This document shows, one piece after another, positions 15,696-19,722 of a stretch of 64,000 nt of DNA. How positions within the stretch are numbered: position 1 is the stretch's first letter; the number at the start of each line of letters is the position of its first letter. The translations under genes were made by a program, and so were the position numbers. The DNA lies in the NCBI RefSeq assembly GCF_057098645.1, contig NZ_CM169472.1, one strand, 5' to 3'. The notes under the pieces were generated by a model. The model searched no databases. It was not told the origin of the DNA and saw only the letters and a program-made list of their open reading frames with translations.

Positions 15696-17012
15696 TTAAG
15701 ACTTCGTCGATTTCTCAAAGCGGCGCAGTAACTGGTTCCCACGCTCAACGGCGGTATCCAGTGCCTGCTGCGGTGTCTTCTTACCGGTCCACACGCTCTC
15801 CAGCTCTTCATCCACAATCACGCGGATCTGCGGCATGTTGCCCAGACGCAGCCCTTTGGTGAACGGCAACGGCGGCTTGTTCAGCATCTGACGCGTCGCG
15901 GTATCCGCCCCTGGGTTTTTCTCATAAAAGCCCTGCTCACGGGTCAGGTCATACGCTGCTTTGGTGATTGGCAGATAACCGGTTTTCTGATGCCACTCGG
16001 CAGCGTTTTCTGGCTTCGCGAGGAAGTCGAGGAACTTCGCCACGCCGGTATACGTTTCTTTATCTTTGCCCTGCATCACCCACAGGCTGGCCCCGCCGAT
16101 AATGGCGTTTTGCGGTGCATCTTTCGCATCGGCGTCGTAAGGCATCATGCCTACGCCATAGTTAAATTTGGCGTACTCACGAATATTAGCGAGAGAACCG
16201 GAAGAGGCGGTGGTCATCGCGCAATCACCGTTATAGAACTTCTCGGTGGATTCATCCTTACGCCCGACGTAGCTGAAATCGCCCTTCTTGTTCATCTCTT
16301 CGAGCATGGCGATGTGTTTCACCTGCTCCGGCTTGTTGAACTCCAGCACCGCATCCGTGCCGTCAAAGCCGTTGTTTTTGCTGGCAAACGGCAGACCGTT
16401 CCAGGCGCTAAAGTTTTCCAGTTGGATCCAGCCCTGCCAGCCGCTGGCGTAGCCGCACTTCATTCCGGAGGCTTTCAGTTTTGCAGAATAGTCCGCCAGA
16501 TCCTGCCAGGTTTTCGGCGGCTGTTCCGGGTCTAATCCTGCTTTCTTGAAGGCGTCTTTGTTGTAATAGAGAACGGGGGTCGAGCTGTTGAATGGCTGGG
16601 AGAGTAAGTGGCCCGTTTTGCTGTCGGAGTAGTAACCGGAAACCGTCGGCACAAACTGCGACTCATCGAATTGAATCCCCGCCTCTTTAAACACGTCATA
16701 TACCGGTTTAATGGCTTTCGACGCCATCATGGTGGCGGTGCCAACTTCATAAACCTGCAAAATAGCCGGAGCATTGCCGGTACGAAATGCGGCAATCCCC
16801 GCGCTTAAATTCTGTTCGTAGTTGCCTTTATAGGTCGGTACAATTTTGTAATCCGGGTTTTCGGCGTTAAAACGTTGGGCCAGAGAATCCACCTCTTTAC
16901 CCAGTTCCCCTTCCATAGAATGCCAGAACGGAATGGTCGTCACTGCCTGTGCATTCCCCATTAACGCCAGTCCGAGCGCCAGTGCTGAAGCTGTATAATG
17001 TAACGGTTTCAT
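15696..17012 (-). CDS. ugpB: Periplasmic sn-glycerol-3-phosphate-binding protein
   Basis: 438 aa ORF with signal peptide [23 protein letters not shown]; first gene of the ugp operon. Confidence 0.9.
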
Positions 17013-17039
17013 CGTTTATCTCTCTTGTTGTACCGAATG

Positions 17040-17150
17040 CGCGAATTCACGCGTTTTATGCTCGCGGGGTAACATGACATGCTCGAATTACAGAAAAATA
17101 ACTTTTTTGTTACATTTGTAAGATAGTAAGGTGTCAGAAAGATGACAAGG
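17040..17150 (-). promoter_or_regulatory. ugpB promoter region with Pho-box-like repeats
   Basis: Minus-strand reading contains CTGTCATCTTTCTGACAC and further TGTAAC/TGTCAT repeats upstream of ugpB, consistent with PhoB control. Confidence 0.5.
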
Positions 17151-17205
17151 CGGTGACGGTACGGGTGAGGGAAAATGGGAGATGGGGCACGGATATCCCG
17201 AGAAT

Positions 17206-17242
17206 GCACTGAAAAGAGGCGATTAACGGCCAGCTAATCGCC
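17206..17242 (-). terminator. Intrinsic terminator downstream of the 249-codon ORF
   Basis: Minus-strand hairpin GGCGATTA-(loop)-TAATCGCC followed by TCTTTTCAG. Confidence 0.5.
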
Positions 17243-17371
17243 AGAACTCCTTACCATGAAGAGCAAAAATGGCAGCAAATTCTGCGTCCAGTTTTGCTGC
17301 CCGATGAGAGCTACATTTTTCAATTTTAACAAAAGATTGCCGCGACACTGGTCTAACGGCAAAGAAGATTT

Positions 17372-18121
17372 TCATTGCACCACACTCTGCTTCAACCGTT
17401 CATTGGCGGTCTTAATCCATTCCCGGTGGTGTTTTCTATAATGAGGTCTTGAGCGTTTAGCCGTATCAACTACAGCAACATACTGCTCGTTGGCTTCACG
17501 TAACCGACTCATTTTCGCCAACATTTCCGCATAGTAAATACGCGCCTGCGGGCCGGGGTAATAAGAAATCAATACTTCAAACTCGCTTTCCGCATCAGCG
17601 TATTTTTCTTGTGCGGCTAACGTTCTGGCAAATAACAAATGCCCGTCTGCCGACTGAAAATCAGGGTTATAACGCATCACATCTTCCAGCGTCTGCTGAC
17701 AGGCGGCGAACTCCTGAATAGCAAACTGTGCCTGCGCCAGGCTTAGCATCATTGCCGCCGCTTCATGGGCGAATATCCCGCTTAACGCCTGCTGATAATG
17801 GGGAACGGCTTCGTGGTAACGCTCCAGACGCGCCAGCTCGTTGGCAAGTTGATAGTGGTTTTGATTGGTCTCGGCAATCGCCAGCTCTTCGGTTAATTTG
17901 CGCAGGTGACGTTCCGGATTGATTTTGTCCTGCAGGCGCATCAGAAAGGTACGCCCGTGACGGTCAGCGCCCGTTTCTGGCAGCATCACCATGACAAAAT
18001 ACGCCACGCAACCAATCACCGGAAAACAGAAGATGATAAAAAACCAATATCGCTCTTGTCCGGTACGGTAAGCGTGGATACAGCAAAGCATTTCAAGCAT
18101 GGCGACAACGGCATAATGCAT
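17372..18121 (-). CDS. Hypothetical inner-membrane protein: N-terminal PLD-nuclease-N-like transmembrane hairpin plus cytoplasmic helical-repeat (TPR-like) domain
   Basis: 249 aa ORF; GGAAAGG Shine-Dalgarno about 9 nt before the ATG; hydrophobic segment YWFFIIFCFPVIGCVAYFVMVML; helical repeat body; own terminator; E. coli-like composition. Confidence 0.55.
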   Translation of the reverse strand: MHYAVVAMLEMLCCIHAYRTGQERYWFFIIFCFPVIGCVAYFVMVMLPETGADRHGRTFLMRLQDKINPERHLRKLTEELAIAETNQNHYQLANELARLERYHEAVPHYQQALSGIFAHEAAAMMLSLAQAQFAIQEFAACQQTLEDVMRYNPDFQSADGHLLFARTLAAQEKYADAESEFEVLISYYPGPQARIYYAEMLAKMSRLREANEQYVAVVDTAKRSRPHYRKHHREWIKTANERLKQSVVQ

Positions 18122-18239
18122 GGGAGGGAACCTTTCCGTGGCAAATAAGTGGTCTGGTTTTAATCCTCCCGGTCAGTTGAAACAAGTCTGTATACGGACG
18201 AAGAGCCCGGCAGAACGTGGCTGCCGGGTATTCGATAAT

Positions 18240-18953
18240 TTACCCGCCTAAATACGCACTTCTCACCGCTTCGTTCGCCAGTAGTGCATCACCAGTATCG
18301 GAGAGCACCACATGGCCGTTTTCCAGCACGTAGCCGCGATCCGCCAGCTTTAGCGCCTGGTTGGCGTTCTGCTCGACGAGGAAGATAGTCATCCCCTGCT
18401 CGCGCAGCTGCTCGATGGTGTCGAAAATTTGCTGGATGATAATCGGCGCAAGACCGAGAGATGGCTCATCAAGCAACAACAAACGCGGGTTGCTCATCAG
18501 CGCGCGACCAATCGCCAGCATCTGCTGTTCACCGCCGGACATGGTGCCCGCCCGCTGAACACGACGCTCATGAAGACGTGGAAACAGCTCATACACCCAC
18601 TTTATGCGCTCCTGAAACTGATCACGTTCGGCAAAAAAGCCGCCCATCGCCAGGTTCTCTTCCACCGTCATCCGCGAGAAGACGCGACGCCCTTCCGGGA
18701 CAATCGCTACCGCTTCGCGCATGATTTTCGCCGTCTGCCAGTCGGTAATGTCTTTATCATCAAACACAATTCGCCCGCTGGTGGCGCGCGGATCGCCGCA
18801 TAACGTGCCGAGCAAGGTGGTTTTCCCCGCCCCGTTCGCGCCAATCAGCGTGACAATCTCGCCCTGATTGATATGCAGGCTCACCTCATGCAGCGCCTGG
18901 ATTTTGCCGTAGTGGGCGCTGACTTTGTCAAAGGACAACATGACTTTTTCCAT
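18240..18953 (-). CDS. livF: Branched-chain amino acid ABC transporter ATP-binding protein
   Basis: ORF track 18240..18965; start moved to MEKVMLSF; Walker A GANGAGKTT. Confidence 0.9.
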   Translation of the reverse strand: MEKVMLSFDKVSAHYGKIQALHEVSLHINQGEIVTLIGANGAGKTTLLGTLCGDPRATSGRIVFDDKDITDWQTAKIMREAVAIVPEGRRVFSRMTVEENLAMGGFFAERDQFQERIKWVYELFPRLHERRVQRAGTMSGGEQQMLAIGRALMSNPRLLLLDEPSLGLAPIIIQQIFDTIEQLREQGMTIFLVEQNANQALKLADRGYVLENGHVVLSDTGDALLANEAVRSAYLGG

Positions 18954-18954
18954 C

Positions 18955-19722
18955 TTATGCCTCACCTAAATAGGCACGGATCACGTCCGGGTTATTACGG
19001 ATTTGCTCCGGCGTACCGTTTGCCAGCGGCGTCCCCTGATTGACCACGTAAATTCGGTCCGAAATTCCCATCACCAGCTTCATATCGTGTTCAATCAACA
19101 AGATAGTGGTGTTGTGATGATTGCGCAGTTCGGCAATCAGCTCATCCAGCTCTTTCGTTTCTTTCGGGTTAAGACCTGCCGCAGGTTCGTCGAGCATTAA
19201 AATCTCCGGCTGCGTCACCATGCAGCGGGCGATCTCCAGACGGCGCTGGTCACCGTAGGCCAGGTTGCTCGCCTGGCGGTTGGCGTGTTCCAGCAAACCA
19301 ATGCGCTCAAGCCAGATGGCGGCGCGGTCGAGCGCTTCGCTCTGGGCGCGACGGAAAGAAGGCGTTTTCAACAGGCCAGAGAACAGCCCGGTTTTCAGTT
19401 GCTGATGCTGCGCCACCAGCAGGTTTTCAATTACCGTCATTTCACGGAACAGACGCACATGCTGGAAGGTGCGCACCACGCCCATGCGGGCGATTTGCTG
19501 CCCCGGCAAACCCTCCAGATGCTGATCGCGCAGTAAAATAGTGCCGCCGGTGGGTTTGTAGAATCCGGTCAGGCAGTTAAAGACCGTGGTTTTTCCGGCA
19601 CCGTTAGGACCGATTAACGAGACGATCTCCTGCGGGTACAGTTCAAGATTGACGTTGTTCACTGCCAGCAGGCCGCCGAAGCGCATCATCAGGCCGTTAA
19701 CAGATAATAATGGCTGACTCAT
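18955..19722 (-). CDS. livG: Branched-chain amino acid ABC transporter ATP-binding protein
   Basis: 255 aa; Walker [10 protein letters not shown]. Confidence 0.9.

Follow-up and report, generated by a model that had tools for sequence, protein, structure and literature searches.

In a 64,000-nt stretch of DNA (the window), a 249-codon open reading frame occupies the spacer between livF and ugpB, a position that, according to an earlier note on this DNA, holds no gene in the K-12 order. Is this ORF a real gene, what does it encode, and did it enter the spacer of some strains or was it lost from the others? Taken together, the data make it highly probable that it is a real, selected and ancestral gene coding for a PLDc_N-type hairpin followed by tetratricopeptide repeats (TPRs).

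The gene and its transcription signals

The ORF is intact in the ORF listing of the window and begins with ATG. Both of its neighbours, ugpB (15696-17012) and livF (18240-18953), lie on the same minus strand. The features of the gene and its borders are the following.

17372..18121, minus strand: coding sequence, 249 amino acids plus stop (ORF list; 100% match to the annotated CDS WP_000558828.1; dN/dS 0.07-0.21; family of 651 clusters at E ≤ 1e-30)
18131..18137, minus strand: Shine-Dalgarno-like GGAAAGG, 9 nt upstream of the ATG (18121-18119), read from the sequence and kept in all aligned Escherichia alleles
18122..18199, minus strand: conserved 5' region, from the allele alignment, with a weak putative sigma-70-like promoter inside
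18206..18228, minus strand: GC-rich hairpin CCCGGCAG-N7-CTGCCGGG, directly 3' of the livF stop and without a U-run (RNA fold)
17208..17242, minus strand: intrinsic-terminator-like hairpin with a 10-bp stem (17242-17218) and a TCTTTTC tail (terminator scan and RNA fold)

The window is 100% identical to E. coli O145 strain RM9872, in which the ORF is annotated as WP_000558828.1, a 'hypothetical protein'. A 248-amino-acid allele, WP_000558842.1 (95-98% DNA identity), is labelled 'tetratricopeptide repeat protein' in O157:H7 and many other strains, and the window allele differs from it by one extra alanine (AHEAAAMM versus AHEAAMM). The earlier note had wondered whether the gene was overlooked, but RefSeq annotates it in every carrier examined; it is an already annotated accessory gene, and not a new kind of element. 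Judging from the published locus tags of its neighbours (ECs4299 for ugpB and Z4824 for livF), it would be ECs4300 in Sakai and Z4823 in EDL933. Literature searches (ugpB/livF/tetratricopeptide, Z4823, ECs4300 and the WP accessions) returned no paper discussing the gene, a lack of study that is probably explained by its absence from the laboratory model K-12.

The gene starts 118 nt after the livF stop codon and has a GC content of 50.3% (GC3 54%), against a window average of 52.8%. Its well-formed appearance, pointed out in the earlier note, holds on closer analysis: the frame is intact, GGAAAGG is suitably placed and the dN/dS is low. About 80 nt 5' of the start codon are almost invariant within Escherichia in the allele alignment, and the region 18122..18199 is near-identical in E. 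coli, the cryptic clades, E. whittamii and E. albertii, and in part in C. freundii. The promoter candidate within it consists of two hexamers read by eye (TTGTTT at 18185-18180 and TAAAAC at 18162-18157, separated by a 17-nt spacer), which match the consensus at three and four of six positions, respectively; a consensus promoter scan did not call this pair. Upstream, the hairpin at 18206..18228, which is kept in part of the aligned alleles, is a candidate end of the liv transcript. Downstream, the terminator scan recovered the hairpin and U-run mentioned in the earlier note: the 17242-17218 stem is directly followed by TCTTTTCAGT, the hairpin lies 130 nt past the stop codon of the ORF, and its position accounts for the left limit (17206) that the earlier note gave to the element. 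This hairpin is likely to be the 3' end of the transcript of the TPR gene, just upstream of the ugpB regulatory region. It is present in the O145 and O157 haplotypes only, the other haplotypes having a different hairpin; at least three versions of the 3' untranslated part exist, and their terminal hairpins differ. The gene thus seems to be transcribed independently, from its own conserved 5' region to its own terminator, rather than as a sixth liv gene; it is probably monocistronic, with possible read-through from liv.

Two other candidate elements were discarded. A 50-amino-acid ORF (17223-17375), which overlaps the stop codon (ATGA) and could have been a coupled downstream gene, is absent or devoid of an ATG in other haplotypes. 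A structured 5' leader, with a GGGAGG/CCCUCC stem at the ribosome-binding site, folds no better than shuffled sequences (z = -0.21), and a change in E. whittamii is not compensated. In addition, no RNA family was matched by an Rfam search of 16900-18400.

Protein architecture and family

The product is a 249-amino-acid protein, predicted to reside in the inner membrane, composed of a PLDc_N hairpin, approximately four to five TPRs and a basic C-terminal helix. These three parts map as follows.

17978..18121, minus strand: two-helix membrane hairpin of PLDc_N type, residues 1-48 (Pfam, hhalign, AF2 and hydropathy)
17429..17914, minus strand: TPR-like helical-repeat domain of about 4-5 helix pairs, residues ~70-231 (Pfam, AF2, Foldseek and conserved columns)
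17378..17425, minus strand: basic C-terminal helix HYRKHHREWIKTANERLKQ, residues 233-248 (AF2 helix; near-invariant Trp)

The AF2 model is all-helical, with a mean pLDDT of 86.6. It places the hairpin helices at residues 2-20 and 23-52, followed by a linker (residues 51-60) with a pLDDT of about 58, and then builds about ten TPR-type helices of 11-17 residues each, with a pLDDT of approximately 83-97 over residues 71-240. The Kyte-Doolittle hydropathy exceeds 1.6 for the second hairpin helix (TM2) only. For the window protein alone, the Pfam match of residues 26-43 to PLDc_N (PF13396) is weak or marginal (E = 0.0099); across the family, 33 of 43 members match at E ≤ 0.1 and nine at E ≤ 0.001, the best reaching 8.7e-7. 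In hhalign, residues 23-47 align with residues 37-61 of E. coli ClsA, including its TM2 (E = 1.4e-4, probability 52%), and share with them W, II, P-x-x-G and AY. The hydrophobic helix pair and the W...P-x-x-G...Y signature in the second helix, by which PLDc_N membership is recognized, are both present, and the hairpin of this type proposed from the letters alone is thus supported. Its invariant or near-invariant residues are H16, W26, P34-x-x-G37, Y41 and P48, with a basic RTGQER loop.

The TPR-like nature of the remainder, also suggested earlier, is equally well borne out. Pfam finds TPR_19 (E = 1.3e-4, and ≤ 0.001 in 37 of the 43 family members), TPR_1 (2.7e-4) and ANAPC3 (8.7e-4), and the domain shows the tandem repeats of about 34 residues and the right-handed superhelix of antiparallel helix pairs that characterize the TPR clan. 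It carries the family motifs EGHLLYAR and YYPGxEAR. Foldseek against the PDB retrieves generic TPR scaffolds only (MamA, designed consensus TPR proteins and the TPR domain of OGT; E of about 1e-4, probability 1.00), and a sequence search against solved structures gave only generic TPR matches with E > 0.08. MamA (PDB entries 3vty and 4xi0) superposes with a TM-score of 0.75-0.79, normalized to the target, and an rmsd of 3-3.6 Å over about 165-171 residues, but at a sequence identity of only 15-18%, which corresponds to generic TPR similarity and not to family membership. In the C-terminal helix, W235 is invariant in one homologue alignment.

A profile built from 20 homologues and searched against 1.84 billion representatives retrieved 2898 clusters at E ≤ 1e-10, of which 651 are at E ≤ 1e-30. 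In nearly all of the 150 matches listed, the alignment runs end to end and the protein length is about 245-255 amino acids. E-values range from 1e-152 to 1e-32 among close matches and go down to 1e-87 for profile matches. Members are found in Budviciaceae, the Pseudomonas mendocina/alcaligenes group, Lysobacterales, Xanthomonas, Xenorhabdus, Gilliamella, Beggiatoa-like bacteria and Alphaproteobacteria. Foldseek against AFDB50 recovers the family itself (TM-scores of 0.7-0.92), under the labels 'TPR protein', 'cardiolipin synthase N-terminal domain-containing protein' and 'membrane protein'. Proteins such as WP_000558842.1 of O157:H7 and A0AAD2SG93 of C. freundii share the full-length architecture and the invariant residues with the window allele, which shows no essential difference from them apart from the extra alanine and the 'hypothetical protein' label. 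We are therefore dealing with a conserved, selected and proteobacteria-wide family combining a PLDc_N hairpin with TPRs, which is found in the pathogens O157:H7 and O145. The sources searched describe no function for any of its members, a literature search on the PLDc_N domain name returned nothing relevant (Leishmania plasmid work only), and no family of the PADLOC defence profiles matched at E ≤ 1.

Among known proteins, ClsA (E. coli b1249) has a similar N-terminal two-TMD hairpin. The two TM2 helices are homologous and share W...II...P-x-x-G..AY, after which comes an acidic residue; in both proteins the loop between the helices is basic and the linker that follows TM2 is net positive. The window protein differs from ClsA in having TPRs fused to the hairpin in place of the PLD/HKD catalytic domain, and a shorter and less hydrophobic first helix (TM1). 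It is not a PLD-type enzyme or cardiolipin synthase: there is no PLDc domain match, the two HKD motifs (HxKxxxxD) are lacking and the protein ends at residue 249. The TIGR04265 match is limited to residues 24-99, with 12.5 bits against a cut-off of 290. The TPR region is weakly similar to CpoB/YbgF (TIGR02795, E = 1.3e-7) and HemY (TIGR00540, E = 4.6e-3), but identity with either is rejected, as the scores are 32.3 and 15.8 bits against curated cut-offs of 90.1 and 142, respectively, and the N-terminal modules and genomic contexts differ; CpoB/YbgF belongs to the tol-pal cluster, whereas the present gene is located between livF and ugpB. LapB/YciM consists of an N-terminal TM helix and cytoplasmic TPRs, with a C-terminal rubredoxin-like, zinc-binding CxxC domain. 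The window protein resembles it, and also the MamA-type scaffold, in its design: a small TPR domain associated with the membrane, presumably for docking partner proteins. It is not LapB, however: no LapB model is found among the NCBIfam matches at E ≤ 1, and the C-terminus contains no cysteine, hence no CxxC domain.

Topology and possible role

On which side of the membrane would the TPR domain be found? The mean number of lysines plus arginines is 0 in the N-terminal tail, 2.1 in the loop between the helices and 4.2 in the 21 residues that follow TM2, so that an N-in/C-in hairpin is weakly favoured; the hydrophobicity of TM1 is only moderate, and the loop, too, is basic. The C-terminal catalytic domain of ClsA is cytoplasmic in wild-type cells (PMC11698083). 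From this analogy and the charge distribution, a cytoplasmic orientation of the TPR domain seems moderately probable. In the model that we propose, the PLDc_N hairpin would tether the protein to the inner membrane, the TPR domain would face the cytoplasm, as does the catalytic domain of ClsA in wild-type cells, and it would offer a membrane-proximal docking scaffold to one or more partner proteins, as in other membrane-tethered TPR adaptors. The complete model, an inner-membrane-tethered and cytoplasm-facing TPR docking scaffold, is put forward tentatively.

The TPR domain could instead be periplasmic, through either an N-out/C-out hairpin or a single-span N-in/C-out arrangement, with a role like that of the envelope TPR proteins CpoB/YbgF or YfgM. 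The best NCBIfam match of the protein is to the TPR part of tol_pal_ybgF (E = 1.3e-7), but with 32 bits this match falls well short of the 90-bit cut-off, and it extends over generic TPR sequence only. The conserved basic RTGR inter-helix loop would favour a cytoplasmic loop, which agrees with a periplasmic TPR domain, as do the weak hydrophobicity of TM1 and the near-invariant acidic residue directly after TM2; the excess of lysines and arginines after TM2 over those in the loop points the other way, and the protein has neither a signal-peptide-like basic n-region nor a lipobox. ClsA can be read in both directions, since its homologous hairpin is able to expose the C-terminal domain to the periplasm under some conditions, whereas this domain is cytoplasmic in wild-type cells. 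On balance, we regard the periplasmic arrangement as rather unlikely.

ClsA can invert upon phosphatidylethanolamine depletion or osmotic down-shock, and its hairpin is required for this inversion (PMC11698083). By analogy, one may imagine a topologically switchable adaptor that would show its TPR domain to cytoplasmic or to periplasmic partners depending on the lipid state of the membrane, an idea that we consider very improbable. If true, the protein would be a sensor-effector of envelope or lipid stress that has gone unstudied because K-12 lacks the gene. Whatever its orientation, the protein carries a module recently shown to control the topology of ClsA, here attached to a non-enzymatic domain, and it therefore offers a convenient second test case.

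Ancestral residency, loss and selection

The gene belongs to a segment whose presence varies among strains.

17196..18239, no strand: presence/absence segment of 1044 bp (blastn of the K-12-like spacer against the window, megablast counts, MG1655 annotation and alignment of five ORF-less strains)

By megablast, this segment is carried by 659 of 5426 complete E. coli genomes (about 12%, or one in eight), including O157:H7 and O145, in line with the strain specificity envisaged in the earlier note. It is always chromosomal, with no plasmid location, and single-copy in all carriers but one genome. In K-12 MG1655, ugpB (b3453) and livF (b3454) are indeed neighbours, and the 398-bp spacer that separates them holds no gene; there is thus no annotated K-12 counterpart of known function, and the annotation elsewhere is descriptive only. 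The five ORF-less strains that were aligned (MG1655, 1EC213, Nissle 1917, FEX669 and elppa9) have one spacer type in common, in which the 1044-bp segment is replaced by an unrelated 212-bp stretch containing two REP elements (a BIME) and a small hairpin.

This pattern might suggest a recent horizontal insertion, the segment being a strain-specific islet put into the livF-ugpB spacer of some E. coli: carriers are a minority of the complete genomes, the swap for unrelated sequence in non-carriers is clean, and the family is patchily distributed across Enterobacterales. However, the same position between livF and ugpB is occupied by the gene in C. freundii (74% amino-acid identity) and in another enterobacterium (68%), and the livF-gene-ugpB order is also found in the cryptic Escherichia clades, E. 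whittamii, E. albertii, Citrobacter sp. NCU1 and a Pseudocitrobacter MAG. The dS of the gene between E. coli and the other Escherichia alleles is 0.10-0.37, compared with 0.13-0.18 for livF, livG and ugpB in the same genome pairs, so that its synonymous divergence tracks that of the flanking genes, and its GC content is native. No integrase or transposase ORF was found in the 14.5-21 kb interval, nor any tRNA or flanking direct or inverted repeats, and the composition is typical. This synteny, the flank-like dS and the lack of mobility signatures indicate that the gene is ancestral at this site. In addition, the interval from the ugpB promoter to the 3' end of the gene contains, in E. albertii, about 95 nt that resemble the K-12 spacer and include its first REP; since the K-12-like spacer and the gene are joined there, the K-12 arrangement looks like a deletion product. 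An insertion is therefore improbable, contrary to what the unexpected position had first suggested. The gene is vertically inherited and was lost from the haplotype that K-12 shares with the other ORF-less strains examined, a haplotype now predominant in E. coli. The ancestor common to Escherichia and its Citrobacter-like relatives would already have had it between livF and ugpB; some E. coli lineages (O157:H7, O145 and others) would have kept it, and in the ORF-less haplotype a REP/BIME spacer sits in its place. The locus is best described as a presence/absence polymorphism in which K-12 has the deleted state, and not as an unannotated or inserted gene.

The losses show that the gene is dispensable: about 88% of E. 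coli genomes lack it, a frameshift disrupts it in the type strain of E. albertii, and an IS4-like element splits it in one E. coli strain. Could the ORF of the window then be a decaying remnant without current function? Apart from these losses, such a reading could invoke the one-codon insertion of the window allele relative to all others and the outcome of searches for expression: the searched text of supplements to three O157:H7 transcriptome or translatome papers has no entry for Z4822-Z4824, and main-text literature searches gave no expression or translation data. Yet the frame is intact, every family-invariant residue is retained, the ribosome-binding site and 5' region are conserved, and the extra alanine falls in a loop between helices according to the alignment and the AF2 model. 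The dN/dS of 0.07-0.21 (around 0.1) against four other Escherichia alleles indicates, at the sequence level, that the gene is under purifying selection. More than 40 homologues have their N-termini aligned at the start methionine, and together with the low dN/dS and the large family of constant length this means that the ORF does not exist by chance. We thus consider decay in this strain to be very unlikely, in favour of a selected, although dispensable, gene.

A functional tie to the neighbours, with the product assisting or regulating, for example, the branched-chain amino-acid transporter Liv or the glycerol-3-phosphate transporter Ugp, is just as doubtful: the gene shares its strand with both operons, it follows livF after 118 nt with an intervening hairpin devoid of a U-run, which makes read-through from liv possible, and the liv-gene-ugp order is kept across Escherichia and Citrobacter, but it has its own conserved 5' region and terminator, and homologues outside these two genera lie in unrelated contexts (next to ybiT/putA-like genes in Budviciaceae, pepA/holC-like genes in Alphaproteobacteria and others in Pseudomonas). 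When the neighbours at 80 loci were clustered, no gene family recurred beyond closely related genera; an ABC-ATPase cluster that could have pointed to a partner is due to the homology of ABC proteins in general (LivG/F in Escherichia, ABC-F proteins elsewhere). As no neighbour travels with it outside close genera, the gene behaves as a stand-alone unit, which makes a specific tie to Liv or Ugp unlikely. Finally, both Liv and Ugp are functional in K-12, which lacks the TPR gene.

The 3′ region between the TPR gene and ugpB

Among the carriers, no fewer than three versions, unrelated to one another, are found of the stretch running from the stop codon of the TPR gene to the conserved regulatory region of ugpB (window 17196-17371), as seen when the window is compared with four other loci (L092, L012, L016 and L017, the last from E. 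albertii NBRC 107761). Every version has its own terminal hairpin, and that of E. albertii also contains a REP element. RNA folding of the 185-nt 3′ region (window 17196-17380) gave a structure more stable than those of shuffled sequences (z = -2.98), and the region has no match in Rfam.

A small ORF is also found at the end of the TPR gene:

17223-17375, minus strand: 50-aa ORF overlapping the TPR gene stop codon (ATGA), with its 3′ end within the terminator hairpin

We compared haplotypes at this position. Three haplotypes (PS10-3, E1V33 and E. whittamii) do not have the ORF, and the E. albertii sequence lacks its ATG; on this comparison of sequences we therefore consider that it is probably not a gene.

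Alleles, disrupted copies and start codons

The O145 RM9872 allele of the TPR gene carries one Ala codon more than all other aligned alleles (AHEAAAMM versus AHEAAMM):

17750-17770: extra Ala codon, at residues ~118-121, in an inter-helix loop

The database labels differ as well, the O145 RM9872 allele being a 'hypothetical protein' and the 248-aa allele a 'tetratricopeptide repeat protein'. Disrupted copies also occur. In the E. albertii type strain, NBRC 107761 (L017 5001-5743), a frameshift truncates the protein at 202 aa, and in E. coli Br_112_kylling (L093 1677-3266) a partial ISVsa5 element (IS4-like) interrupts the gene, which carries a pseudogene annotation.

For the neighbouring livF (window 18240-18965), the mechanically defined ORF encodes 241 aa from a GTG. 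The RefSeq start lies four codons further downstream (237 aa, 18240-18953), a trivial ambiguity in the choice of start codon.

Other cargo and paralogues in relatives

The livF-ugpB spacer of C. freundii (L004 5850-7324) contains, between the TPR gene and ugpB, two small ORFs of 93 and 135 aa of unannotated function together with a Phd/YefM-Fic toxin-antitoxin-like pair. The spacer thus appears to act as a hotspot of small accessory cargo. Finally, an Enterobacteriaceae MAG encodes a tandem pair of paralogues of the TPR-gene family (L018 2105-2875 and 3017-3778); the genes on either side of the pair are an ABC-F ATPase gene and one resembling putA.
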